A stretch of DNA of 64,000 bases from Isurus oxyrinchus (GCA_026770705.1 JANJGN010000010.1:40052001-40116000), one strand, 5' to 3'; counted from the stretch's first letter, positions 10,501-58,414 are shown. Notes: a model not told the origin generated them from the letters alone. Program-made: numbers and translations.

Positions 10501-12560
10501 TTTTTTTTATTCAATCACGGGATGTGGGCTTCACTGGCTGGGCCAGCATTTATTGCCCATCCCGAGTTGCTCTTGAGAAGGTGGTGGTGAGCTGCTTTCT
10601 TGAACCGCTGCAGTCGATGTGGTGCAGGTACTGTTAGGAAAGGAGTTCCAGGATTTTGACCCAACCACAGTGAAGGAACAGCAATATGTTTCCAAGTCAG
10701 GATGGTGAGTGACTTGGAGGGGAACCCCCAGGTGGTAGTGTTCCCGTGTATCTGCTGCCCGTGTCCTTCTAGGTAGTAGCAGTTGTTGGTTTAGAAGGTG
10801 CTGTCAAAGGAGCCTTGATGAATCCCTGCAGTGCATCTTGTAGATGGTACACACTGCTACTACTGTGCGTCGCTGGTGGAAGGAGTAAATGTTTGTGGAT
10901 GTGGTGTCAATCAAGTGGGTTACTTTGTCCTGGATGGTGTCAAGCTTCTTGAGTGTTTTTGGAGCTGCACTCATTCAGACAAGTGGGGAGTATTCCATCA
11001 CATTCCTGACTTGTGCCTTGTAGATGGTGAACAGGTATTGGGGAGGTAGTAGGTGAGATCCTTGTCGCACGATTCCTAGCCTCTGACCTGCTCTTGTAGT
11101 CACAATATTTATACGGCTTGTCCAGCTCAGTTGGTCAATGGTAACCCCCAGGATGAATGTAGTGGGGGACTCAGTGATGGTAATGCCATTAAACATCAAA
11201 AGGTGATGGATTGCCCAGGTCTTCCTGCAGTTGGACATGAACTGCTTCAGTATCTGAGGACTCGTGAATGGTGCTGAACATTGTGCAATCATCAGTGAAC
11301 ATCCCCACTTCTGACCTTATGATGGAAGGGAGGTCATTGATGAAGCAGCTGAAGATGATTGGGCCAAGAGCACTGCCCTGAGGAACTCCTGCAGTGATGT
11401 CCTGGAGCTGAGATGACTGACCTCCAACAACCACAACCATCTTCCTTTGTGCTAGATATGACTCCAACCAGCGGAATATTTTCCCCCTGATTCCAGTTTT
11501 GCTAGGGCTCTTTGCTGCCACACTCAGTCAAATGCTGCCTTGATGTCAAGGGCAGTTACTCTAACCTCACTTGAACCAAGGCTGCAATGATGTCAGGAGC
11601 TGAGTGGCCCTGGCAGAACAGTGAGCAAGTTATTGCTAAGCAAATGCCACATGATAGCACTGTGGATGACCTTTCCATTACTCTCCTGATAATCAAGGGT
11701 ATACTGATGGGGCGGTAATTGGCTGGGTTGGATTTGTCCTGCTTTTTGTGTACAGGGCATACCTGGGCAATTTTCTACATAGCCAGGTAGGTGCCAGTGT
11801 TGTGGCTGTGCTGGGATAGCTTGGTTAATGGGGGGCAGGTTCTGTACAATTGCCGCAATATCGTCAGGGCCCGTAGCCTTTGCAGTATTCAGTGTCTTCA
11901 ACTAGTTCTTGATATCACATGGAGTGAATCGAATTGGTTGAAGACTAGCATTTGTGATGCTGGGGACCTCCTGGTGGAGTCCGAGATGGATTATCCACTC
12001 GGTACTTCCAGCTGAAGTTTGTAGCAAATGCTTCAGCCTTATTTTTTGCACTGATGTGCTGAGCTCCTCCATCATTGAGGATGGGGACATTTGTGGAGCC
12101 TCCTCCTCCAGTGAGTTGTTTAATTGTCCACCACCATTCACAACTGGATGTGGTAGGACTGCAGAGCTTAGATCTGATCCGTTGGTTGTGGGATTGCTTA
12201 GCCCTGTCTAACGCTGTGCTGCTTGGCACTAAAGTAGTCCAGTGTTATAGCATCCAACACATTGACACCTCATTTTCTGGTATGCCTGGTGCTGCTGCTG
12301 GCATGCCCTCCTGCACTCCTCATTGAACGGGGGTTGATCCCCTGGCTTGAAGGTAATGGTACAGTGGGGGTATATGCTGGACGATGACGTTACAGATTGT
12401 GTTCGAGTACAATTCTGCTGCTGCCCGTCAGTACCTCATGGATGCCCATTTTTGAGTTGTTAGATCTGTTCCAGATCTATCCCATTTAGCACAGTGGTCG
12501 TGCCACACAGCACGATGGAGGGTATCCTCCATGTGATGGCAGGGCATTATCTCCACAATG
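10501..12560 (-). mobile_element. CR1-group (Zenon-like) single-ORF LINE, 5'-truncated and decayed
   Basis: AGVPQGSALGPIIFSCFINDLPSIIRSEVGMFTDDCTMF, IYKAQVRNVMEYSPL; same family as 38953-42105 and 53860-57005. Confidence 0.9.
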
Positions 12561-13066
12561 ACTTTGGTGGTTACAAATTGCATTCCCTACACCTGATTAA
12601 CAGCTCAGATGAATTTGTAGCTCAAGGCATTTTATTGAATTTATTATCTTCACTATCCTTTGCCTTCTCGCTACTGAGAGGATCAGGGTTTTTTTTTTTT
12701 GCGCTGCTTCATCGTTATCATCTGTTCTTCTTATAGCCTCAACTATCAACATTGGACTTAAATGAAACAGCTTCTTCTTTAATGTTGCTGAGGTTGAGGC
12801 TTTCTGAAATAAAAAACCTCTGCCCATTCAAGCAATCTGAATTTTTGCTTCTGAAATCTTGCACTGCTGCTGCACCAGAAACAAAACACAAGAGCAACTC
12901 AGAATCCCAAACAGGCAGGTTAGATCCTGTACAAATGCCAGGGATGTGCTACCTGCAATAATGGCACAGGTTTCCAGAAGTCGCAAGGATATATGTGAGA
13001 GACCCTCCCTGGCATAGGACCTGAACATTTGATTGGCACCAAGTCACATAGAGGATGGTACCTTAC

Positions 13067-19944: not shown

Positions 19945-20290
19945 AGACACTGGAACAGTAGTCCTTCTGGTGATATGGGCTCAAGTTCCACCCTGGCAGA
20001 TCGTGGAAATTTACTTAATAAAATCTGGAATTGAAACCTAGTCTCAGTAATGGTAAGCATGAAATCCTCATTGGCTGTTATAAAAACCCATCTGGTTCAT
20101 TAGAGTCCTTTAGGGAAGGAGATCTGCTGTCCTTGTCTGGCCCACATGTGGCTCTAGATCCACAGCAATGTGGTTGACTCTTAGCTGCTTTCTGAAGTGA
20201 CCTAGCAAGGTAGTCGGTTCAAGGACAATTCAGAATGAGCAACAAATGTAGGCCTTGCCAGTGATGCCCGCATCCCATGAAAGACTGAGT
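19945..20290 (+). mobile_element. SINE composed of the tRNA-like head/5' UTR and the 3' tail of the single-ORF LINE family
   Basis: 19975-20220 matches the LINE 5' region (38970-39195; 56730-56930 reverse); 20220-20285 matches the LINE 3' end (42040-42100). Confidence 0.75.
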
Positions 20291-20597: not shown

Positions 20598-22830
20598 AGG
20601 ACAGAATTTTCCATGCCCGCTATGTTTGATGGCATGAGTGGACAATATGATGAAAAAGCCAAGTATCAGTTACACAACGTCGTGAAACCAGTTTGCAACC
20701 ATTGTTGGCGGGCCACGTTCCTCACCATTGGACATTGGAAACTTTATTGTAATGCACCAACATATCACTATAAGGCCAGCCAACCAAAATCACCCCCCAC
20801 ATTGGATTATCCACCCACATCGGCAGGAAAGCATGCTGGTGCAGAACACGTCTTGACAAATGTGACACGCAGAAGTTGGGACTTACCGCCAGGGCCTTGC
20901 TCACATTGCGGACATTCAAGGAGCAGAAGATGCTGGAGCCCGACAGCAATGGCACACTGGAGGAACGTCCATGGCATAAGGGGTGGATTCTCATGGACAT
21001 GACTCAGCTGCGAAGCGGCTCACGGAAGTTGGAAAGTTATTGTTGACACTCACAGGGTCGACTGGGGGAAGACGAGGCATCAGGGGGATGAGGTTGGGAG
21101 GGGAGGCTGAAGGTGACATGGGAGGTTGCAGGGATGGAATACGGGGGGATGAGGGGGTAACGGGAGAAGATGGCAACTAGAGAGATAGGTGTAAGGAAGG
21201 TGGAAGGTGTAAGCGAAGGAGTTCAGAGAGGAGAAAGAGTGTGGAGAGGGCAGAGAGTCCAAGGGGAGGAAGGAGTGTGGAGAGAGAAGGGAGTCCGGGA
21301 GGAGGAAGGGGTACAGAGAGAGAAGGGAGCCTGGGGGGAAGAAGGAGTGCCAAGGAGGGAAGGAGTAAGGATGGAGGGTGGTATCAGAAACGGTGAAGGA
21401 ATAAAGGTGGATGAAGAAGTAAGGATGTCTGAGGGAGTCAGGAAGGGGGAAGGCTTAAGGTTGGTGGAACAAGGGAGGTTGGAGGAACAGGTAAGGCTGG
21501 AGGGAATGGTTGGGAGAGGAGGACTAAGGGTGGCAGAAGAAGTCAGAAAGAAGGATGGGGGACAGCGGGGGGAAGTCCAGTGGGGTGGGAGGATTAAGTG
21601 AAGGGGAAGAGGTTCCAGGGATAAGGGGTCTGGAAGGGGGGAGGGTTCAACGGTGGCAGTAGAAGAGATGGCGAGGGAGCTTGTTGCGGACTCGGAGGGT
21701 GACACGGACTCTGGGGGTAGTGAGGAGGCTGGGAAGTTAATGTGGATGGGGGTAGGTCTTTCTGGAAGGAAGGGAATGCGCACCTTCACCAGGACATCCC
21801 CGAAAGAAAAGGGTTATAGCTGGTAGTTCACGGAAGGGAGGTGGAAGATGATACCAGAGGGATCAACTGTGATGGAGGAAAGGGAATGGGTGACTGGGGG
21901 AGGGGTAAAGGATGGGGGGGTGAAAGTAAAACTGAAAGTGAAACAAGAGTCGTGGTGGGCAAGATCAGGTGCTGCTTGGGAGAGTGATCAGTGGTTTGGC
22001 GGAAATGCAGGTCAGCTCAGATGGACAACTGGAAGCGAATCCCAGCAGGCAGCACTGAAAATGCTCAGGACGTAAAGGTGAGTGTGATATGGGAAGGATC
22101 TGCATGCATGGGACAGTGCTTGCATGAGGCTCTGAAAGGCCCTTGCCACACACACACTTCTCCCCCAAGAATCTTTCGTGGGCCGGCTGCTCCCTCTGCA
22201 GTGACAGAGGATAAGGCCAAGGGGGTCACAGGCAAAGGGGATTCAGAGGGAGTGGACAGCCTCTGAAATTCCTGAGTGGATGACCCAGGGGTGTCCAGCT
22301 GCTGCTCCTTCTCCCTCCAGGTACCTGAGGGCGCTGGCCTAACTCCTTGAGGGGAAGGAGCACCTGGAGGGATGTCGAGGTACCCCATTTCCCTCTCGCA
22401 TTGTCGCTGCAGGAATTCACCCATGGCTGCAGCGATGGAGTGCAGGTCTGGTGAGCGGAGCAATGGACAGCATGACAATGCGAGCTCAAGAAGGTATGAG
22501 CCTGATCGAGATATGAGGGTGTGTGTGAGATTTAGTGGTGTTGTCCCTTGAAGTGTGAGATTTCTGTGGAGGTGTGATGGGTTTGTGAGTGTGTGAGTTG
22601 AGAGTGATGAGAAGAGTGAGTTACCCTGACAGAATGGATGAGACAATTCATCCTGTCGCGGCACTGGTTGGCTGTTCTCTTTTGCCGGGCACTGGCGCTG
22701 ACCACTGCTGCTGCTTCAACCCATGTTGGACTGGTGATGCTGCTGCCCCTCCTGTGGCCAGAGCATGCATAGAGGACATCACGGCGGGCCATTCTGTGCC
22801 AGGTAATTCACCTCCTGACGTCCCAAACCC
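20598..22830 (-). mobile_element. Non-autonomous Harbinger-derived element (Myb/SANT exon + S/T/P-rich periodic segment), inverted relative of 3429-6200
   Basis: Myb exon ARRDVLY..WVEAAAVVSASARQKRTANQCRDRMNCLIHSVR|gtaac (22624-22792); terminus GGACAGAATTTT near 20598; 18-bp periodic tract ~21200-21510. Confidence 0.7.
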
Positions 22831-23310
22831 TGTCCATCTTGTAAAAGGCACAAGTCAGGAGTGTGATGAAATACTCCCCACTTTCCTGGATGAGTGCAGC
22901 TCCAACAACATTCAAAAAGCTTGACCCCATCCAGGACAAAACAGCCCGCTTGATTAGCACCCCACCCATCACCTGAAACGTTCACTCTCTCCACCACCAA
23001 TGTACAATGGCAGCAGTGTGTGCCATCCAGAAGATGCACTGCAGCATTCGCCAATGCTTCTTCAGCAACACCTTCCAAACTGTGACCTCAACCATTAGAA
23101 CAGAGACAACAGACACATGGAAACATTACCACCTGCAAGCTCCTCTCCAAGTCACACACCATCCTGACTTGGAAATATATCATTATTCTTTCACTGTCAC
23201 AATGTCTTAGAGCTCCCCATCTAAGAGCACTGTGAGTGCAGCTGCACCGGATGGACTACAGCAGTTCAAGAAGGTGCCCTTCTCAAGGGCAATTCAGGAT
23301 GGACAATAAA
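22830..23310 (+). mobile_element. 3' end of single-ORF CR1-group LINE
   Basis: KAQVRSVMKYSPLSWMSAAPTTFKKLDPIQDK followed by the family 3' UTR. Confidence 0.85.
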
Positions 23311-25701: not shown

Positions 25702-26324
25702 CAGTGCACATGGCTCTATCCAACACCATACTGACCCTGCATGAGAATCATGTCCACTTCTACATCACTGTGTGGGCAGTATTGTACACATTAAACTCAT
25801 TGAACTCATTAACCTATATTTGTCAGGCCCTTTTCCTACAAGTTGAGCCTCAACAAACCCACAAAAATATTGCTGATTCATTTTTAAATCACTCTTTGTT
25901 AAAGGAAGCTGATAGGATAATTTATTCTTCTTTCTGGGGAGCAGAAGCAGCAAAATCCTGAACATCAAACTATCTGACTTTGTGTCAGTATAGAACCTTA
26001 GGGTGAATGTGGACACCCAAGTTATATCCAGAGTGTTGTAGAACATGCCAGGCATTTTTAAATTAAATTAAGTGACCCTCTTACTACTCCACACACTCAA
26101 CAAGGGGCAGCAGCAAAGGACTCTGACTGACATAACTTTGGAATGCCATGTGGAGTAATGCCAGGGAGTGCAGTAGAAATACTGTTTATGTGTATGAACA
26201 GGGTTTTTGCCATGCTTTGGGTCAAGTTAAGAGACACTGAAGAGATAATCATTATTTCTAGACTTACATGTTTTCTGATATAATTTAACACAAAGGTACA
26301 GCATATGGCTTTTGTAATCCTTAC

Positions 26325-26663
26325 CTGACACCTGCAATGCTGAAGTCTGTTTTACTTTTTCAGGAGTTATGAACACAATGCAAGTGTATCTTCCTTCATC
26401 AGCTAACTGTACTTTTGGAAGATAAAGTGAAGCATCTCCTATTAGTAAATCCTTCTGAGAAATGTATCCTCCAGGTCGCTTTGGCGTATGTTCTCCTCCA
26501 TTAAACAAATACACTTCTGTTTGTTCTTCAAAAAGCCATTGGACTCCTACCTTTTTTAGGTCAATGGTGTCACCAACATAGCCAGTTACCTTGCACTTCA
26601 GGAGAACATCTTCATTTAATAATACTTTCAGTGGGCTTTGAAATATTTCCAGATTTATTGTGT
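26325..26663 (-). CDS. NCR3LG1: Ig V-set exon of B7-H6 (NCR3LG1)-like gene
   Basis: 339 nt phase 1-1, tttaaag| and G|GTAAGG. DVLLKC..VGVQW..VYLFNGGEHTPKRPGGYIS..GDASLYLPKVQLADEGRYTCIVFITPEK matches the B7-H6/tapasin-type V pattern RPG..GDASLxLP..YxCxV..TP. Orthology versus paralogy not established. Confidence 0.85.
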
Positions 26664-27639
26664 CTTTAAAAAAAAGGCAAAAATTATGGAAACATCTAAC
26701 AACATACACTATCATAATAATACTGTATGGCTTTGCCACCCAACTAATGCAGGCCAGAGTTGATTTTCATCTGTGGCATACATCTGGTGGGTGAGGCAAC
26801 CACTACACCTGCCCAATAATGCCTGTGTTAGGCCCAATCTATTTAGTAATGAGGTCTGATTCAAACTTGCACAAATCCTGCTGCTTGTTGGCTGCTCTGT
26901 CTTTGAGAAGGAAGGATATCTGGCAGGGAAGCTGCTTCTCAAAGCCAACCTGCGTCCTTTAAAAGGAAGGTTGAATTTTTATTGGTGGTACGAGTGAAGC
27001 AAATATTTGTAGCAGGTGACAGAATTTCAACAGCCAAGCCACCCCTATTTTCAGGTATTGCTGTGGAGATACTTATTGAATATCCCAGAACTAGAAAATA
27101 GGTACTCTTCCTTCAAATGACTGATGGTTGCCATGCCAAATAAGCCAGCCACTGTGGAGAGACTTGACTGAGCAAGTCAATATCAGCAACATCATTCCCA
27201 GAGCCAACCTGTAGAACAGGAGTAGATTTAATGACCTTACAAGCACTGCAGGGGTAAAACTCCTCTTTACTTCTCACTTACTCTGAATTAAACCCTGGAA
27301 TATCACATTTCTTCCTTCACTGCTATTTCTTCTCTCTCCTAGAACACAAGCCTCTCATCCAATCACAATGGGCCACTTCATTACTTCCTTCTTTGTACAC
27401 CCAGGCTAAACATCTGCAAACTCTCACTCCAATAGAAGATGTTGCCATTGATTTTATTGGCGGAGGGGGTACACTCTGAATTAGAGATGGTGAGGCCAGA
27501 GGCGATGCAGAGTACGGCATCAGAAGTTTCCATTTCTAAACTCTTAATATTTAACTCTCTCACCCACATACATATCCAGGCACCCTGTATCTGAATTGCA
27601 CCCACCAATGCTTATCCTTTTGCTGTTAGGTTATCATGG

Positions 27640-38952: not shown

Positions 38953-41900
38953 GGGGGAGGCGTTGGAATTCCAGATGGTGGAATTTGAATTCGATAAAAA
39001 CCTGGAAATAAAAAAGTCCAATGATGATCATGAAAGCCTTGTCAATTGTCGTAAAAATCCATCTGGTTCACTAATGTCCTTTAGGGAAGCAAATTTCCCA
39101 TCCTCACCTGGTCTGGCCTATATGTGACTCCAGATCCGTAGGAATGTGGTTGACTCTTAAATGCCCTGTGAAATAGCCTCGCAAGCCTCTCAGAACCACT
39201 ATCGAACACTAAAAAGCCAATAAAAAGGGATGAAACTGGAGGGACCACATGGTATTAACCTAGGTGCCAGAAACGAAAGTGGCAGCCTGTCAACCCATCA
39301 AGGTCCTCCTTACTAATATCTGGGGCATGTGCCAAAATTGGGAGAGCTATCTCAGACTAGTCAAACAACAGCCTGACATAATCACACTCACGGAATCATA
39401 CCTTACAGATAATGTCCCAGACACCAACACCACCTGTCCCATCGGCAGGATAGTCCCAGCAGAGGTGGCGGCACAGTGATATACAGCCAGGAGGGAGATG
39501 CCCAGGGAGTCCTCAACATCAACTCCAGCCCCCATGAAGTCTCATGGCATCAGGTCAAACATGGGCCAGGAAACATCCCGCTGATTACCACGTACCGCAC
39601 CTCCGCCTCCCCCCATAATCCACCTCAGCCGATCAATCAGTCGTCCTCCATGTTGAACACCACTTGGGTGGCAAGGACGCAGAATGTACTCTGGGTAGGG
39701 GATTTCAATGTCCATCACATGTGTGGCTCAGAAGCACCATCACAGACCGAGCTGGCCGAGTCCTTAAGGGCATAGCCATTAGACTGTGTCTATGACAGGT
39801 GGTGAGGGAACCAACAAGGGGGAGAAAGATACTTGGCCTCACCCTCACTAATCTGCCTGCTGCAGATGCATCTGTCCATGACAGTATCGGTATGAGTGAC
39901 CACTACACAGTCCCTGTGGAGACGAAGTCCCATCTTCATGTGTGTGGCACTATCACCCAGCTAAATGGGATAGATTTTGGACAGATCTAACAATTGAAGA
40001 CTGGGCATCCATGAGGCACTGTGGACCATCAGCAGCAGCAGAACTGTACTCAACCACAGAGTGTAACCTCATGGCTTGGCATATCCTCCACTCAACCATT
40101 GCCACCATGCCCAGGGGATCAACTCTGGTTTAATGAAGAGTGCAGGAGGGCATGCCAGGAGCAGCATCAGGCATACCTAAAAGTGAGGTGTCAACCTGGT
40201 GAACCCATAACACAGGACTACTTGAGTGCCAAACAATATAAGCAGCAAGTGATAGACAGAGCTAAGCCACCCCACAACCAACGGATCAGATCAAAGCTCA
40301 GCAGCAGAGCTACATCCAGCTGTGAATGATGGTGGACAATTAAACAACTCACTGGAGGAGGAGGCTACACAAAAATCCCCATCCTCAACGATGGAGGAGA
40401 CCAGCACTTCAGTGCAAAAGAAAAGGCTGAAGCATTTGTAACAACTTTCAGCCAGAAGAGCCGAGTGGATGATCCAACTCGGCCTCCCCCGGAGGTTCCC
40501 AGCATCACAGATGCCAGTCTAAAGCCAATTCGATTCACTCCACGTGATATCAAGAAACGGTTGAAGGCACTGGATACTGCATAAGCCATGGGCCCTGACA
40601 ATATTTCGGCAATAGTGCTAAAGACCTGTGCTCCTGAAATTGCCACGCCCCCAACCAAGCTGTTCCTGTACAGCTACAACACTGGCATCCACCTGGCTAT
40701 GTGAAAAATTGCCCAGGCATGTTCTGTGCACAAAAAGCAGGACAAATCCAACCCAGCCAATTAATGCTCCATCAGTCTACTCTCGATCATCCGTAAAGTA
40801 ATAGAAGGGGTCACCAACAGTGCTGTCAAGCGGCACTTGCTTAGCAATAACCTGCTCACTGATACCCAGTTTGGGTTCTGCCAGGGCCACTCAGCTCCTG
40901 ACCTCATTACAGCCTTGGTTCAAACATGGACGAAAAGAGTTGAATTCCAGAGGTGAGGTGAGAGCGACTGCCCTTAACATCAAGGCAGCAATTTACTAAG
41001 TGTGGCATCATGGAGTCCTAGCAAAACTGGAGTCAATGAGAATCAGGGGATAGCTCTCGGTTGGAGTCAGATCTATCACAAAGGAAGATGGTTGTAGTTG
41101 TTGAAGGTCAATCTTCTCAGCTCCAGGACATCATCGCAGGAGTTCCTCAGGGTAGTGTCCTAGGCTCAACCATCTTCAGCTGCTTCATCAATGACCTTCC
41201 TTCCATCATAAAGTCAAAAGTGGGGATTTTTGTTGATGATTGCACAATGTTCAGCCGTATTAGCAACTCCTGAGAAAGTGAAGCAGTCCGTGTCCAAATG
41301 CAGCAAGAGCTGGACAATATCCAGGCTTGGGCTGACAAGTGGCAAGTAACATTCGCACAATGCAAGTGCCAGACAATGACCATCTCCAACAAGAGAAAAT
41401 CTCAACATCACCCCTCGACATTCAATGGCATTACAATTGCTGAATCCCTCATAATCAATATCCTTGGGGTTACCATTGATGAGAAACTGAAGCAGTATAG
41501 CCGTATAAATACTGTGGCTACAAGAGCAGGTCAGAGGCTAGGAATCCTGCGGCGAGTAACTTATCTCCTCACTCCCCAATACCTGTCCACCATCTACAAG
41601 GCACAAGTCAGGATTGTGATGGAATACTCCCCACTTGTGTGGACAAGTGCAGCTCCAACAACACTCAAGAAGCTTGACACCATCCAGGAAAAAGCAGCCC
41701 ACTTGATTGGCCCCCCCTTCCTCAAACATTCACTCCCTCCACCACCGACAAACAGTGGCAGTGTGTACCATCTACAACGTATACTGTAGAAACTCACCAA
41801 GGCTCCTTAGATAGCTTCTACCAAACCAACGACCGCTACCATGTAGAATGACAGGCACAGCAGATACATAGGAACACCACCACCTGGAGATTCCCCTCCA

Positions 41901-42105
41901 AGCCATTCACCATGCTGACTTGGAAATATATCCCCATTCATTCACTGGCGTTAGATCAAAATCCTGGAACTCCCTCCCTAACAGCACCTACACCACATGG
42001 ACTGCAGTGGTTCAAGAAGAAAACTCACCATCACCGCCTCAAGGGCAATTGGGATGGGCAATGAATGCTGGCCTAGCCAGCAATGCCCACATCCCATAAA
42101 TGAAT
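38953..42105 (+). mobile_element. Near full-length single-ORF (EN+RT) CR1-group LINE, disrupted
   Basis: EN motifs QPDIITLTESYL, WVGDFNVHH, VREPTRG..SDH; RT motifs GPDNI, QFGF, GVPQGSVLG, FVDDC; only ~300 bp upstream of EN, so no ORF1. Confidence 0.92.
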
Positions 42106-42727
42106 ACCTTGCAAACCTTTATAAACACTGGTATCTACAATCATGATGGTCCCAGTTGAGCTTTCATGGTAGCAAGCTGACCTCGCAGTGCAGAAGTTTG
42201 AGTTTCTATTGTAGCACCCAGACAGTGGGTGAGTTCTGCATTTGCTGCAATGGAAGTTGAGTCATCGGTCCTCAGATGCTGCATTATGGTGGGTGTCAAT
42301 GGAGGTGCTCCCACTTCCACTCTGGAAAGGATGGGCTCCATTCTCTACACAGTGCCCTGTAAAGTTGATGCTGAACTCCTCCATGCTCCATCGCATTGTT
42401 AATAGGCCTACCAATATACCAATTATTTCATTGTGCGTACCCATCTTCTTTTGTAGCTTGTCCCAGTACTTGTCTGAGTCCTCTGCTGCAGCATTCATGT
42501 ACATCCTCCAGGGAGCTAGCAGCTGTGTTACCCATGGTCCCTGACCTGCTGCAGGCCATTCATGCCCAGTGTCTCACCACGTGCATGTCTCTAAGCTACC
42601 ATCTAAAGTACACAGTGTCAGTATCTGAGCTGCTGTGAGAGTGACAGTGTTCATTTTCATTGTCTTCTTGTTGCTTCACCAGGTTGCAGTTCTTAGACAT
42701 CTGAAAGGACAAATGCACAAGGATAGG

Positions 42728-49545: not shown

Positions 49546-50205
49546 CTGGACCAAAGAAAATAATGCAGTAAAAGCATAAATGGAAACAGACATTCATGAT
49601 GAAACAAGAATACCACAAGAATATTCATTTTGGAAATAAGGATATCATTTCCATTTCAGGAAATGGTAGCTCTCTGTAAAAACTCACTGAGGCTGAGAGC
49701 ATGTTTCCAAGTTGTAAAATGCTGAGGTTGCTAGATTGGCATATTCTAAACTTTACTACAGCCTTGGAAAAATACCTAAGAACTCAACATCTTGTGTGAA
49801 AGATCTCACATCTTGAACTGCAGCGGCAATTTTCTTTTATGTTATAAAATGTCACTCTTACAGCAATCACCTTTTCACAAGGGGATCAACATCAAGTTAT
49901 GGGAAGAAGCAATATCTTTCAAGATTGAAACACCAGGTCAAGGTTATAACAAGTTTAAATTATCCCCAATATTAGTGAACAATTAAAGTTTTATTGGTGT
50001 CACACAACTGTGGTGACAATATGGAAACTATACAAATGCATCTGTTTCAAAGATATTTGTCTAGAAGCCATTGCGTAATTGTATTTTTTGTACCCACAGG
50101 TGTTAAAGTATATAAATAACTTAACATGCAAAATTTATGTATGATCATTGTAACATTTTTTTTGTCTGAGTTAGAAGGCTGTAGGTTCAAGCCCCACTCC
50201 AGACA

Positions 50206-51939
50206 CAACTCGCAGACACTTCCTCCTACCTCTCCCTGGACCATGACCCCACCACTGAACCTCAAGCCATTGTTTCCAGGACTGTCACTGACCTCATCTC
50301 CTCTGGGGATCTCCCTCCCACAGCTTCCAACCTGATAGTCGCCCAACCTCGGACGGCCCGCTTCTATCTCCTACCCAAAATCCACAAACAGAACTGCCCC
50401 GGTAGACCGATCGTCTCAGCTTGCTCCTGCCCCACAGAACTCATTTCTCGTTATCTTGACTCCCTTCTCTCTCCCCTTGTCCAGTCCCTTCCCACCTACA
50501 TCCGTGATTCCTCTGACACCTTACGTCACATCAACAATTTCCAGTTCCCTGGCTCCAACCGCTTCCTCTTCACCATGGACGTCCAATCCCTCTACACCTC
50601 CATCCCCCACCAGGATGGTCTGAGGGCCCTTAGCTTCTTCCTCGAACAGAGGCCCGAACAATCCCCATCCACCACTACTCTCCTCCGTCTGGCTGAACTT
50701 GTTCTCACATTGAACAATTTCTCCTTCAACTCCTCTCACTTTCTCCAAATAAAAGGTGTGGCTATGGGTACCCGCCTGGGCCCCAGCTATGCCTGTCTCT
50801 TTATGGGGTATGTGGAACATTCCTTGTTGCAGTCCTACCCCGGCCCCCTTCCACAACTTTTTCTCCGGTACATCGATGATTACTTCGGTGCCGCTTCATG
50901 CTCTCGTCGGGACTTGGAAAAATTTATTAATTTTGCTTCCAATCTCCACCCCTCCATCATTTTCACGTGGTCCATCTCTGACACTTCCCTTCCCTTCCTT
51001 GACCTCTCTGTCTCAATCTCTGGTGATAGACTGTCCACCAATATCCATTACAAACCCACCGACTCCCACAGCTACCTCGACTACAGCTCCTCACACCCCG
51101 CTTCCTGTAAGGACTCCATCCCATTCTCCCAGTTCCTTTGCCTTCGTCGCATCTGTTCCGATGATGCTACCTTCAAAAACGGTTCCTCTGACATGTCCTC
51201 CTTCTTCCTTAACCGAGGTTTTCCACCGACGGTCGTTGACAGGGCCCTCAACAGTGTCCGGCCCATCTCCCGCGCATCCACCCTCACGCCTTCTCCTCCC
51301 TCCCAGAAACATGATAGGGTCCCCCTTGTCCTCACTTATCACCCCACCAGCCTCCGCATTCAAAGGATCATCCTCCGCCATTTCCGTCAACTCCAGCATG
51401 ATGCCACCATCAAACACATCTTTCCTTCACCCCCCTTATCGGCATTCCGTAGGGATCGCTCCCTCCGGGACACCCTGGTCCACTCCTCCATCACCCCCTA
51501 CTCCTCAACCCCCTCCTATGGCACCTCCCCATGCCCACGCAAAAGATGTAACACCTGCCCCTTCACTTCCTCTCTCCTCACCGTCCAAGGGCCCAAACAC
51601 TCCTTTCAAGTGAAGCAGCATTTCACTTGCATTTCTCCCAACTTAGTCTACTGCATTCGTTGCTCCCAATGTGGTCTCCTCTACATTGGAGAGACCAAAC
51701 GTAAACTGGGCGACCGCTTTGCAGAACACCTGCGGTCTGTCCGCAAGAATGACCCAAACCTCCCTGTCACTTGCCATTTTAACACTCCACCCTGCTCTCT
51801 TGCCCACATGTCTGTCCTTGGCTTACTGCATTGTTCCAGTGAAGCCCAACGCAAACTGGAGGAACAACACCTCATCTTCCGACTAGGCACCTTACAGCCT
51901 TCCGTTCTGAATATTGAATTCAATAACTTTAGGTCGTGA
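50206..51939 (+). CDS. Penelope-type reverse transcriptase + GIY-YIG endonuclease (N-terminally truncated; frame open upstream of the ATG at 50575)
   Basis: FYLLPKIHK..GRPIVS, MDVQSLYTSI, QIKGVAMG, LRYIDD, LPFLD, YKPT, CPRKRCNTC, LVYCIRC..LYIGET..RFAEH. Confidence 0.92.
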   Translation, partial: QLADTSSYLSLDHDPTTEPQAIVSRTVTDLISSGDLPPTASNLIVAQPRTARFYLLPKIHKQNCPGRPIVSACSCPTELISRYLDSLLSPLVQSLPTYIRDSSDTLRHINNFQFPGSNRFLFTMDVQSLYTSIPHQDGLRALSFFLEQRPEQSPSTTTLLRLAELVLTLNNFSFNSSHFLQIKGVAMGTRLGPSYACLFMGYVEHSLLQSYPGPLPQLFLRYIDDYFGAASCSRRDLEKFINFASNLHPSIIFTWSISDTSLPFLDLSVSISGDRLSTNIHYKPTDSHSYLDYSSSHPASCKDSIPFSQFLCLRRICSDDATFKNGSSDMSSFFLNRGFPPTVVDRALNSVRPISRASTLTPSPPSQKHDRVPLVLTYHPTSLRIQRIILRHFRQLQHDATIKHIFPSPPLSAFRRDRSLRDTLVHSSITPYSSTPSYGTSPCPRKRCNTCPFTSSLLTVQGPKHSFQVKQHFTCISPNLVYCIRCSQCGLLYIGETKRKLGDRFAEHLRSVRKNDPNLPVTCHFNTPPCSLAHMSVLGLLHCSSEAQRKLEEQHLIFRLGTLQPSVLNIEFNNFRS

Positions 51940-52369: not shown

Positions 52370-53859
52370 CTTTTCTTCTCCGCCGATGCTGCCAGACCTG
52401 CTGAGTTTTTCTAGGTAATTCTGTTTTTGTACAGGAGTACATTATGTAGCGCTGGCATTTCTGTGTGGTACCGAAGGAGTGCTGCAGCACTGTCAAAAGC
52501 GTTGTCTTTCAGACGTTAAGCTGAGGCATTGACTGCTCACTCAGCCGGTTTAAAAGATCCTACAGCACTACTGAAGGTGGACAGTTCCCCTGGCCAACAT
52601 TTTTACCTCAACTTTCATTTATACCTTTTCAAGAAAACAAGAAATTGTAATATTTTTCTTCTTGCAATAACCCTGATATATTTTGTTATGTACTGGAAGT
52701 TAGGCTGTAATTGGATTAAGGGCTAGAGTGACAGCAAGGGTCTAAAGCCAACAGTGGCTTTGATATGTTAACGAACCAAGAAGAACTTCAATCAGAGTTT
52801 TACATAAAGTAATAACAGGAATGTTTTTGAATTGAGTTGTTGTAGTTCAAAGCGGGGTAGATACATGCAGGTTGTAAAAAGGTGTAAGGAAATAAGGTAA
52901 AGATAGGGTAAGTTCGTTTTTACAAGTCTAAGAGCTAAAGTAAAGAACAATTGAATCAATTCTGGGAAGAAAGCATTTCTAAAGAGACTGGTTGAGATAA
53001 TAGAGAGATCAAAGGAAAGGAGCGCATTTAAAGAAATACTGAAGCCTATGTGAAAGGGTAGCTTCTCAGATCTTCCAGAAGACAGCAACATGGCTGGTCA
53101 GAACTCTCAGAAGACTGTGAACAATGCCAGACTGAAAAAAGCAATTGCTGTCAGCCTCATAGGACACCCCAAGGTAAAAACACTGTGTAGGAAAAATTAC
53201 GGGAATTCCAAAGATTCTAAAATCTATAAGGATAGTTGCTGACTGAAAAGGGGAAGGTTAGCTCTGAGGATAGTTAAGTTAAGATTTGTGGAACTGTTTT
53301 AAAGTACTCTTTACTATGTGAAATCATTCATGTATTTAAATGTAAGTGTGTTTTATTTGTTTTTCTTTATTATTTTAATAAACGTTTACTATAAAATCAT
53401 CACAAGTAACTGGGGACATCATTTGCTGATTTCAAAACCACTCCTCATACAATACAAATTGCAAAAAACTGTTGTGGGGTGGCCAAGGGCTGCACTGTAG
53501 TTGATGGTAATGCACAAACACGTGTGGGGTGTGGAGTGAGAGAAATGGCCACACATTAGGGAAACCTTATATAAAGTGACCATTCCTCTGCAACTGAGTC
53601 AGTTCAGGCCCAGCCACACTGACATGCTTGGGGTCAGGCATCTTGCTTATTTGCCCAGTCAAGCAACACAGGGACATGAAAGTGCCATCAAATGCCCCTG
53701 AACTTTTCACCCCTCAGGCACAGGCTGCAAACTAATGATAATTTTAGGGGGCTGCAGAATAGTTGGACAACTGGGTATGTTATGCAATCTCCTTGTTAAA
53801 GCTGTCCATGGAGCAGTCACTGGTGAAGGCGCTCACAGTACCTCGCAAACTCATAATTC

Positions 53860-56800
53860 AGGTTTTTATTTATTCATTCACAGAATTTGGGCTTCGCTGG
53901 CTGGGCCAGCGTTGACTGCCCATCCCTGGCTGCCCTTGAGTGGTCAGCTGCCTTATTGAACCACTGCAGTCCATGTGGTGTAGGTACACCCACGGTGATG
54001 TTAGGATGGGAGTTTCAGGATTTTGACCCAGCAACAGTGACGGGAAGGTGATAAATCTCCACGTCAGGATGGTGAGTGGCTTGAAGGGGTGTCCCCATCT
54101 ACCTGCTGCCCTTATCCTTCTAGGTGGTATTGGTCATGGGTTTGGGAGGTGCTTTGGAAGGACCCTTGCTGAATTCCTGCAGTGCATCTTGTAAATGGCA
54201 CCCACTGCTGCTACTGTGCATCAGTGGTGGAGGGAGTGAATGTTTGTGGATGTGGTGACACAATCAAGTGGCCTGCTTTGTCCTGGATGGTGTCAAGCTT
54301 CTTGAGTGTTGTGGGAGCTGCGCTCATCCAGGCAAGTAGGGAGTATTCCATCACACTCCTGACTTGTGCCTTGTGGACAGGCTTTGGAGAATCAGGCGGT
54401 GAGTTACTCATTGCACAATTCCCAGCCTCTGACCTGCTCTTGTGGTCACAGTATTTATACGACTAGTCCAGTTCTGTTTCTGATCAATGGTAACCCCCAG
54501 GATGTTGATATTGGAGGATTCAGTGATGGTAATGCCATTGAACATAAAGGGGCAATGGTTGGATTCTGGAGATGGTCATTGCCTGACACTTGTATGGCGC
54601 TAATGTTACTTGCCACTTGTCAGCCCAAGCCTGGCTATTGTCCAGGTCTTGCTGCATTTGGACATGGACTGCTTCAGTATCTGAGGAGGCGCAAATGGTG
54701 CTCAACATTGTGCGATGATCAGCAAATATCCCCACTTCTGACCTTATGATGGAAGGAAAATCATTGATGAAGCAGCTGAAGATGGTTGGATCGAGGACAC
54801 TACCCTGAGGAACTCCTACAGTGATGTCCTGGAACTGAGATGACTGATTTCCAACAACCACAATCATCTTCCATTGTGCTAGGTATGACTCCAACCAGCA
54901 AAAAGTTTTCCCCGATTCTCATTGGCTCCTTGATGCCACATTCGGTCAAATACTACCTTGATGCCCAGGGCAGTCACTCTCACCTCACCTTGGGAGATCA
55001 TCTGTTTTGTTATGATAGAACCAAGGCTGTAATGAGGTCAGGAGTGAGAGGCGCTGGCAGAACCCAAACTGGGCGTCGATGAGCAGGCTATTGCTAAGCA
55101 AGTGCTGCTTGATAACACTGTTGATGACCCCTTCCATCTCTTTACTGATTATGGAGAATAGACTGATGGGGCGGTAATTGGCCAAGTTGGATTTGTCCTG
55201 CTTTTTGTGGGCAATTTTCCACATAGTTGGGTAGATGCCAGCATTGTAACTGTGCTGGAACAGCTTGGCTAGGGGTCCGGCAAGTTGTGGAGCACAAGTC
55301 TTCAGTACTATTGCCAGAATATTGTCAGGGCCCTCAACCTTTGCAGTACCCAGTGCCTTCAACTATTTCTTGATATCATGTGGAGTGAATCAAATTGGCT
55401 GAAGACTGGCATCTGAGATGCTGGAGACCTCCTGAGGAGGCCAAGGTGGATCATCCACTCAGCACTTCTGGTTGAAGATTGTAGCAAATGCTTCAGCCTT
55501 ATTTTTTGCACAGAGGTTCTGAGCTGCTCCATCATGGAGGATGGGAATATTTGTGGAGCCTCTTCTTCCAGTGAGCTGTTTAATTGTCCACCATCATTCA
55601 CGGGTGGATGTGGCAGGGCTGCAGAGCTTAGATCTGATCCATTGGCTATGGGTTTGGCTAGCCCTGTCAATCACTTGCTGCTTATGCTGTTTGGCATGCA
55701 AGTAGTCCTGTGTTATAGCTTCACCAGGCTGACACTTCATTTTTAGGTATGCCTGGTGTTACTCCTGGCATGCCCTCCTGCACTCTTCTTTGAACCAGGG
55801 TTGATCCTCTGTCTTGATGGTAATGATAGATTGGGGGATATGCCGGGCCATCAGGCTACAGATTGTGTTCAAGTATAATTCTGCTGCTGCTGATGGCCCA
55901 CAATGCCTCATGGATGCACAGTCTTGAGTTGCTAGATTTGTTCGAAACCTACCTCATTTAGCGCAGTGGGAGTGCCACACAACACGATGGAGAGTATCCT
56001 CAATGTGAAGGCAGCACTTCATCTCTACAATGACTGTGCAGTGGTCACTCCCACTGATACTGTCACGGACAGGTGAATCTGCAGCTGGTAGGTTGGTGAG
56101 CATGAGGTCAAATATGTTTTTCCCTCTTGTTGCTTCCCTCACCACCTGCTAAAGATCCAGTCTGGCAGCCATGTCAATTAGGACTCAGCCAGCTCAGTCA
56201 GTAATGGTGCTACCAATCCACTGTTGGTGATGGACATTCAAGCCCCACACCCAGGGTACAACCTGCACCCTTGCACTCCCAGTGCTCCTTCCATGTGGTG
56301 TTCAACAAAGAGGAGCAATGATTCACCAGCTGAGGTACATGGTAATCAGCAGGAGGTTTCCTTGCCATGAGGCTTCATGAGGTCCTGAGTCAATGTTGAG
56401 GACTCCCAGGGCAACTCCCTCCAGATTGGATACTACTATGTCACCACCTCTACTGGACCTGTCCTGCCGGTGGGGCAGGACATACCGAGGGATGGTGATG
56501 GTGGTGTCTGGGACATTATCTGTAAGGTATGGTTCTGTGAGGATGACTATGTCAGGCTGTTGCTTAACCAGTCTGTGAGACAGCTCTCCCAACTTTGGCA
56601 CACACACCCAGATGTTAGTAAAGAGGACTTTGCAGCATCGACAGGGCTGAGATTGCCATTTCTGGTACCTAGGCCGATGCCGGGTAGTCCGTCTGGTTTC
56701 ATTCCTTTTTTGTGACGTAGCAGTTTGTTACAACTGAGTGGCTTGCTAGGCCATTTCAGAGGACATTTAAGAGTCAACCACTTTACTGTGGGTCTGGAGT

Positions 56801-57005
56801 CATGTGTAGGCCAGGCCAGGTAAGGATGGCAGATTTCCTTCCCTAAAGGGCAAAAATCAACAATTGACTTTTAATTCCAGAATTTTTCACTAAATTCAAA
56901 TTCCACCATCTGCCATGGAAAGATTTGAACCTGAGTCGCAATGGGATTATTTTGGGTCCCTAGGTTACTAGTCCAGCAATAATGCCACTATTCCATTGCC
57001 ACCCC
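53860..57005 (-). mobile_element. Near full-length single-ORF CR1-group LINE with tRNA-like 5' head
   Basis: KLGELSHRLVKQQPDIVILTE, VREATRGKNIFDL..SDH, NYRPISL, GVPQGSVL..FADH; A-box/B-box-like motifs at the 5' end. Confidence 0.92.
56921..56995 (-). promoter_or_regulatory. Pol III type-2 internal promoter-like A and B boxes at LINE 5' end
   Basis: TGGAATAGTGG (56995-56985) and GGTTCAAATCT (56931-56921). Confidence 0.55.
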
Positions 57006-58414
57006 TGTAGGCTATTGCACCCCACAGCTCAAGCTAACAGTGCAGATTTGCAGTGCGTGTTAGGAGAATGCCTGTGCCTGAGCTGAGAGCACAGCATGCA
57101 GTCCAGTGGGCAAAGCTGCTGCCAATCGGTCAAGTGGAGTGGCGCTGAGGTGGATGGGGTTTTGGGCAGCCATGCAGCACACTAAACTCTGGCCATCCAA
57201 GTGGTGGCCAGCCCTCTCTGAGTTGCATTATTGGGACTTCAGACTTAACCAAGAGAGCTTCTTAGTACACGCAAGCTAACTCATGCTTTTCTCTCTTTCA
57301 TCCTACAGGAGGAGTACCTCAGGAGCCTGGTGACTTAGCTGTATGCTTCCTGGCTTAGGACAGCGGAGACAAAGGAGAAGAGAGTGACAGTGGTGCCTGG
57401 CTGGGCAAAGAGAGGAACAGCACCCTTAGGAAGAAGGGGTGGCTGGGGCTCCCACAGATGCCACTGAAGAGCATTAGCAAGCCTAGCTAGACCCAGGGTC
57501 TATAGGTGCCACATTTCATTCCTGCAGATGACCAAGAACCAGTATTGCTGAAGACTGCACATGACTAGGGAGCTGGCTGGTCAAATCTGCCAGCTACTGC
57601 AGGACTTGACGCCATGGGGACATGGAGGCCCTCCACTGCCAGTGGCTGTGAAAGTGACCGCGGTGCTTAATTTCTATGCCAGTGGCTCCTTTCAGGACTC
57701 CACAGGTGACCTCTGTGGGATATTTCAAGCCTTCACCTACAAATGCAACCATGAGATCACGGATGCTATCTTTGCGAAGGCACACAGCTGTGTTCAATTC
57801 ACCTGGGATTAGGAAAGCCAGGATGCAAGAGCGCTGGGATTTGCCCAGATCTCAGGTTTCCCACAGGTGCCATTGACAGCACAAACGTGGCGTTCAGACG
57901 TGTGTGGCAACAAGCGCTCAGCTACGCCAACTGCAAGAGCTTCCATTTGCTGAATGTGCAACTGGTGTATGACCACCACAAATGCATTCTGCAGGTGTGT
58001 GCACGGTTCACAGGGTGTGTCCTCAACTCCTACATTCTTAGCAGGTCTCAAATCCCTGACATTTTCCAGGGGCCACAGAGAATGCAGGGATGGCTCCTCG
58101 GGGACAGGGGCTATCTGCAGAGGATGTGGCCGATGACACCTGTGCAGCGGCCTCAGGCTGCAGCCGAGCGAAGGTATAATGAGACTCATGCTGCAACTCG
58201 TACCTGGTGGAGCAAACCATTGGGATGCTGACAATGTGGTTCTGGTGCCTGGACCAGTTTGGTGGAGCCCTGCAATATAATCCATAGAAGGTGGCACGCA
58301 TCATTGTCACCTGCTGCACACTTTACAACCTGGCGCTCCAACGGGCAGAGGAGCTGGTTGAGGAGGAGATGGAAGAGCCGCATGTCTCCTCCGATGAGGA
58401 AGAGGTCAATAAGG

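Follow-up and report, generated by a model that had tools for sequence, protein, structure and literature searches.

The question raised by this locus is whether a LINE that encodes its own endonuclease and reverse transcriptase (EN-RT) can also be headed, and transcribed, by a tRNA-type RNA polymerase III (Pol III) promoter. The window is the whole 64,000-nucleotide stretch of Isurus oxyrinchus DNA that was analysed, and it contains several copies of one retrotransposon family (Table 1). The first-pass annotation reported two full-length copies sharing a G-run start, which was found to be the case, copy A beginning with GGGGTGG and copy B with GGGGAGGCGTTGG. Copy A is a decayed full-length insertion of 3134 nt, a head followed by an EN-RT ORF, belonging to the Zenon LINEs. 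It does retain A-box- and B-box-like motifs as reported, with one mismatch each, and copy B does have the internal deletion attributed to it, which takes out the A box and, in all, ∼67 nt of the head. The two boxes of copy A are separated by 53 nt and form the only A/B box pair within the window. As 0.47 such pairs are expected per Markov shuffle, a single pair in 64 kb lies within chance expectation and the case for a promoter has to rest on the family.

Table 1. Positions of the features discussed in the text, counted from the first nucleotide of the window.
Feature	Position	Strand	Remarks
Copy A: tRNA-like head, Deu-type body, single EN-RT ORF, A tail	53863..57005	-	BLAST, 86% identity to family consensus
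Putative Pol III A box	56985..56995	-	1 mismatch to TRGCNNARYGG; starts 10 nt past the 5' end; intact in consensus
Putative Pol III B box	56921..56931	-	1 mismatch
Anticodon-arm-like hairpin in head	56960..56976	-	Fold of consensus; loop anticodon AGT (Thr-like, by eye); extra hairpin after it
SINE-body (Deu-type) segment common to local SINEs	56732..56860	-	25 nt deleted in copy A; SINE junction at 56732
Small hairpin closing the Deu segment	56739..56753	-	7-nt loop; one compensatory pair change in a sub-lineage
Conserved ATG in a frame other than that of the EN-RT ORF	56700..56702	-	35-codon overlapping uORF; same phase in 54/71 copies
Single APE endonuclease + RT ORF, broken in copy A	53926..56727	-	RVT_1 E 4.5e-10; consensus 968-969 codons; endonuclease motif I codon at 56616, ORF end at 53926
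3' end and A tail, common to SINEs	53863..53945	-	
Harbinger-type DNA transposon hosting copy A	53700..58400	.	DDE_Tnp_4; paralogue at ∼32.8-34.4 kb is an empty site
Copy B, full-length minus ∼67 nt of head including A box	38954..42114	+	
Copy C, 5'-truncated	10500..12574	-	Consensus nt 1031-3279
3' fragment of Zenon family	22803..23310	+	
Older-form tRNA/Deu SINE	19950..20290	+	LINE 5' end + LINE 3' tail; decayed boxes
Exon-like open frame	26227..26766	-	Immunoglobulin V-set domain (Pfam E 3.5e-9)
Penelope-like retroelement	50185..51939	+	584-codon frame with RT and GIY-YIG domains

The main consensus was the majority sequence of 27 copies, its head being completed with 25 further copies, and is 3284 nt long. 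The proposal made for copy A depended on conservation of the boxes in the family, and both are perfect in the majority sequence. The head, nt 1–95, also contains an anticodon-arm-like hairpin (AGT) and an extra hairpin; the head is thus tRNA-like as the annotation had it, as far as boxes and hairpin are concerned, but neither ARAGORN nor Rfam called a tRNA in it. A body in common with SINEs occupies nt ∼170–316 and is followed by a stop-free frame, the 3' end and the A tail. The frame is the only one in the element, 968–969 codons with an APE endonuclease and an RT, so that the description of a LINE without ORF1 was correct, and it opens ∼320 nt from the 5' end, close to the ∼300 nt originally estimated. 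Copies are 85–96% identical to the consensus and no intact copy was found, the longest open frame being 446 aa among loci L031–L060. At the ORF sites diagnostic of subfamilies, 15 of 20 changes were synonymous where 27% would be expected (p 1e-5). This excess suggests that the master copies made protein, and the substitution pattern indicates that the ORF evolved under purifying selection. Its identity is 26–27% to shark CR1s and 33–43% to single-ORF relatives. Tandem arrays of 56–61-nt pieces of the element were seen beside the copies at L039 (3' region) and L047 (EN start). The least diverged copies (L348–L377), including a sub-lineage with an altered hairpin, cluster near contig ends.

Sequence comparison identifies the family as one already published, the elasmobranch Zenon of the CR1 group, CarCar_Zenon-1 and relatives (Stuart et al. 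2026, PMC13343379). In the available parts of that paper and its supplement, the consensus has 3288 characters compared with 3284 nt here, its first 400 nt match by eye with the head included, and Zenon is characterised by the lack of ORF1 and by a poly-A tail, both of which apply to the family described here. The head opens seven consensuses in the supplement, from five elasmobranch species comprising sharks and a ray, and the first 400 nt of the hagfish and coelacanth Zenons given there are without it. The SINE-LINE chimera of the first-pass annotation is thus no isolated case, a published family being normally built in this way, while the annotation's contention that head and ORF form one unit held up, as the empty sites described below show. 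Within the available text, 'tRNA' and 'polymerase III' are absent from the main paper and 'tRNA' from the supplement; the preprint of Stuart et al. contains none of 'tRNA', 'polymerase' and 'promoter'. As far as these parts of PMC13343379 go, the head, the avoidance of T-runs, the absent ATG and the link with SINEs are undescribed and are added here. A search of the open literature turned up no account of an autonomous LINE with a Pol III head.

Depletion of runs of four or more T on the sense strand had been predicted for this element and was observed. The sense strand of the main consensus has no T≥4 run and six T3 runs, compared with 14 T≥4 and 47 T≥3 runs on the opposite strand. On the sense strand, three independently built majority sequences have 6–7 runs of T≥3 each, and their T≥4 counts are 0, 1 and 0; the two additional consensuses used other copy sets and cover ∼2.5 kb, and the T3 sites are otherwise the same. 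With protein and codon usage held, the ORF contains 4 T≥3 runs against 12.4 expected (P<0.001), and runs of A, C and G are as expected under this null. For T≥4 runs, the figures are 0 against 2.2 (P=0.07) with the strictest null and 0 against 5.1 (P=0.002) with four-fold-site frequencies. Where C and T are synonymous, T occupies 153 of 329 isolated sites, 45 of 145 sites where it gives TT and 4 of 40 where it gives TTT or longer. Synonymous T is hence avoided where TTT would form (OR 0.13, p 5e-6). For comparison, ORs of 0.73 and 0.49, the latter a mild avoidance (p 0.03), were obtained for two shark CR1 consensuses constructed in the same way, which had 9 and 5–6 T≥4 runs. The non-canonical motifs T3VT2/T2VT3 are absent from Zenon and occur 11 and 6 times in these CR1 controls. 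A wider comparison drew on 80 metagenome loci; 22 were dropped as shorter than 400 codons or unmatched, and in the 58 other LINE ORFs that remained the OR ranged from 0.33 to 2.33. Only one of these ORFs, the unrelated L250, was free of T≥4 runs; the closest relative of Zenon in this set (37% identity) has 20. The T-run signature, as would be left by Pol III read-through, is statistically supported by these sequences and was previously unreported. The depletion extends to TT and TTT, beyond what a TTTT terminator needs, so that some other avoidance of U could explain it.

Several minor points concern the same material. No tRNA gene was found in the 42 of the 80 metagenome loci that were scanned and similarity to the head was found in none of the 80; A/B-like pairs in 2 of the 80 were taken as chance. 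Two T-poor LINE fragments in one metagenome assembly (L250, 137–1626, and L190, 629–2108) have 0 and 1 T≥4 runs in ∼1.5 kb; their 5' ends lie outside the contigs and they may represent a second T-avoiding lineage. In L323, L329, L046, L058, L332 and L308, 4–7 consecutive Ts separate the 3' end from the A tail; they may mark a Pol III terminator, with polyadenylation after it, or result from ordinary A-tail decay. RNA contigs are strand-blind and 3'-biased like the genomic copies, with the head covered least, and were not used as support.

The combination of a tRNA-type promoter with T-run avoidance in an element coding for its own enzymes suggests that the RNA is likely to be made by Pol III. 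On balance we favour, with moderate confidence, an autonomous Zenon LINE transcribed by Pol III from end to end from its A and B boxes and translated without an AUG. Pol III would start at G1, read through 3.3 kb free of TTTT and stop in a downstream T-run. Pol III RNAs are uncapped, and this RNA would have to recruit ribosomes internally or by reinitiation around consensus nt ∼320–440. The EN-RT protein would then copy its own RNA by target-primed reverse transcription, and internal deletion of the element RNA or cDNA would yield ready-made SINEs. There is perhaps an even chance that the fuller history is also correct, namely that Zenon has been a Pol III-transcribed coding LINE since before the shark-ray split, makes a 110-kDa EN-RT by AUG-free initiation on uncapped RNA, possibly on ribosomes recruited by the Deu segment, and is the direct parent of the shark Deu-SINEs.

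The strongest competing explanation, in our judgement unlikely although it deserves serious consideration, is that Pol II makes the coding RNA, by virtue of activity in the head or body or by read-through from the flank, the SINE head being merely kept and the U-poorness reflecting avoidance of splice or polyadenylation signals or of RNA decay. Characterised LINEs all use Pol II according to the part of Kojima 2018 (PMC5786205) that deals with them, and the depletion of TT and TTT as well as TTTT, the presence of an A tail and the easier translation of a capped RNA would all suit Pol II. However, T≥4 runs are kept in both of the genome's CR1 families examined, which are of Pol II type, and in 57 of the 58 other LINE ORFs, the boxes are kept across sharks and a ray, and the 5' ends of the copies pile up just ahead of the A box. 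Furthermore, with at least eight upstream ATGs and no in-frame ATG, scanning from a cap would be no easier than the alternatives.

Neither a start codon nor an established initiation element was identified for the ORF. The first in-frame Met is codon 284, past the endonuclease, whereas most relatives that cover the endonuclease start have an N-terminal Met; the N-terminal stretch of the EN frame is basic, as in the relatives. The consensus has eight or more upstream ATGs and a conserved ATG out of frame at nt ∼348, and the upstream ATGs together with the lack of an in-frame one argue against ordinary scanning. About half of the copies have an in-frame TAA directly ahead of the open frame (37 versus 32), and this TAA, together with comparison of the frames of the published heads, places the start at or beyond nt 321. 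A GCT lies in the EN frame at nt 327 in 44 of 65 copies and, by eye, has the same register in four of the seven published consensuses and four of the five species. Two candidate starts were set aside: a TTG just upstream is blocked by the TAA in 37 of 70 copies, and a −1 frameshift from the out-of-frame ATG is not favoured, there being no canonical slippery heptamer and only a near-match that is lost in the published Squalus consensus (by eye).

AUG-independent initiation is known for the ORF2 of L1 and of zebrafish L2, and the arrangement of the leader makes initiation of this sort likely as the general route in Zenon. A more specific candidate is an IRES mimicking a tRNA. The loop of the hairpin upstream presents a triplet, AGC, able to pair with the in-frame GCT, and the stem pair in 56 copies is G-C in 32, G-A in 11 and U-A in 5, with one compensatory change. 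In one sub-lineage, 6 of 17 loops have changed to AAC with the GCT unchanged, and the positions resembling U33 and A37 are variable, which weakens the case. Rfam IRES models gave no match in eight loci at E≤1, and folding z-scores were not significant, the leader folding no better than shuffles. We therefore regard a tRNA-mimic IRES as doubtful. The nearest comparison is the type 6 (IGR) IRES of dicistroviruses, which in the part of PMC12221177 that describes it starts at a non-AUG codon beside a small stem-loop, as proposed for Zenon, and commonly uses GCU and ACA as first codons, the Zenon frame opening with GCT ACA. Unlike the type 6 IRES of that account, the Zenon leader has no Rfam match and its loop varies without compensation in one sub-lineage.

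The absence of an in-frame ATG ahead of codon 284 and the TAA that about half of the copies have close to where the ORF begins might instead mean that the head-bearing form is wholly or partly non-autonomous, a long Pol III-transcribed, SINE-like passenger of a headless or ATG-bearing master. We consider this improbable. With queries containing the head, 50 of 85 copies begin no more than 12 nt from one common first G, while the sequences flanking them upstream are unrelated; the pile-up lies 10 nt ahead of the A box. The bias of such queries was removed by using only the endonuclease (consensus nt 580–1060). Of the 30 copies selected in this way, 17 extend to no more than 20 nt short of the 5' end, 8 stop inside the head or body and 5 after it; none of the 30 shows an alternative 5' end, and upstream sequence is shared only by one duplicated pair. 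In 600 kb of arbitrarily placed sequence, of which the family and its SINEs make up 33.5 kb (5.6%), all three copies covering the ORF start run into the SINE body. Neither these 30 copies nor the 600-kb sample contained an ORF1-bearing or headless master. The purifying selection over the ORF also speaks against a passenger, as does a modest linkage of head and ORF: the leader variant at nt 320 tracks the ORF subfamily (rho 0.47, p 9e-4) while the head sites at nt 141 and 198 do not, in an alignment that is noisy because the flanks of truncated copies were forced into its columns.

Head and ORF move as one unit. At copy A, the spacing of the flanking anchors is the same as at 12 of 12 empty Harbinger sites, among them the paralogue at ∼33 kb in the window, so that head and ORF must have been inserted jointly and without target duplication. 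This Harbinger-type transposon is abundant, with 4652 candidate matches and two copies in the window (32.8–34.4 kb and 53.7–58.4 kb). Target site duplications (TSDs) enclosing head and ORF, which had been put forward as a test of the chimera, are mostly absent from the group and could not serve as one: a repeat of at least 6 nt flanks 6 of 34 full-length copies compared with 3.1 in shuffled pairings, and the empty sites were used in their place and show a single event. In two copies the TSDs look genuine; they measure 8–10 nt and overlap the first Gs. Full-length copies, complete from head to tail, make up 34 of the 52 loci that were inspected over their whole extent. The junction of head, body and ORF is the same in all copies and was found to be identical in five species, with no internal A tail or TSD. 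Separate insertion of the head and of the ORF, or repeated template switching between SINE and LINE RNA, is scarcely credible given this fixed junction and the one-event empty site, even though SINEs outnumber 5'-complete LINEs.

The main local SINE consensus (30 copies and the SINE of the window) consists of LINE nt 1–316 (∼98%) and, directly after them, the final 71 nt; TT stands on both sides of the join. There are at least three classes of join, at nt 316, nt 292–293 and nt 332. The nt-332 class contains sequence found only in the LINE, and those SINEs at least must be LINE deletions; from their structure the local SINEs in general look like internal deletions of the Zenon LINE. The alleles of the SINE tail correspond to minor alleles of the LINE. 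In unselected sequence (909 kb, with some duplicates), body-bearing matches comprised 17 of SINE type, 5 LINEs and 5 unresolved, and the ratio of SINEs to 5'-complete LINEs is ∼3–4 to 1. The first annotation paired copy A with the SINE at 19.9 kb. This pairing did not survive: outside CpG sites, that SINE is 78% identical to the ends of the LINE, whereas the 31 aligned SINEs, of which it is one, average 89%, and the head segment of the 19.9-kb element is of an older kind, like the published Squalus consensus (by eye). The comparison identifies it as an older variant rather than the direct partner of copy A.

The name Deu for the body segment is presumptive, being assigned by description from what the available part of PMC5499810 says of SacSINE1. 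The parts of PMC5499810 and PMC4824008 that were available describe SacSINE1 and LmeSINE1 as having a tRNA head, a conserved body and a LINE-derived tail, and the local SINEs fit this description. Those elements are non-coding, whereas Zenon here is 3.28 kb with a 968-codon ORF, and the link of SacSINE1 to the LINE L2-2_CM concerns only the tail (PMC5499810), whereas here the LINE also possesses the whole 5' part of the SINE. According to the same parts of these papers, Deu-type SINEs also exist in the coelacanth and beyond. Given that the coelacanth and hagfish Zenons lack the head in their first 400 nt, the most economical history is one in which the LINE took up the 5' part of a SINE and later gave rise to SINEs again by deletion, and the distribution of the head suggests that Zenon probably captured the Deu-type 5' part once, before the shark-ray split.

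Other LINEs are known to give rise to short derivatives. In the portion of PMC6740152 on lepidopteran Zenon, the Persaeus SIDEs are repeated internal-deletion derivatives of 5' and 3' ends, like the local SINEs, but are without tRNA homology or a Pol III promoter; the parent LINE here already has the head, so that deletion leaves a complete SINE. Bov-A/Bov-tA and Vingi, in the part of Kojima 2018 (PMC5786205) devoted to them, also illustrate a SINE made from LINE 5' and 3' parts, but in the model given there the tRNA head is added later to a non-coding Pol II derivative whereas here the coding parent already has it. The closest non-shark relative, L186, differs in having a ∼60-nt tandem repeat upstream of the ORF (380–500) and no tRNA head, the repeat being like the arrays described for ORF1-less CR1-group elements.

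If the favoured reading of a Pol III-transcribed autonomous Zenon is true, the textbook division, which has LINEs coding and made by Pol II and SINEs non-coding and made by Pol III, is broken by a natural family. Zenon RNA would then be a messenger made naturally by Pol III, the precedents so far being engineered constructs, reportedly those of Gunnery and Mathews in 1995. It would also offer a one-step route to the birth of a SINE, and what the Deu domain and other conserved SINE bodies do would become testable, as one of them sits where the translation of a selected ORF must begin.

A Penelope-like retroelement lies on the opposite strand to copy A, and the V-set frame (Table 1), which we take to resemble B7/NCR3LG1-type genes, may place the repeats studied here within or close to a gene.
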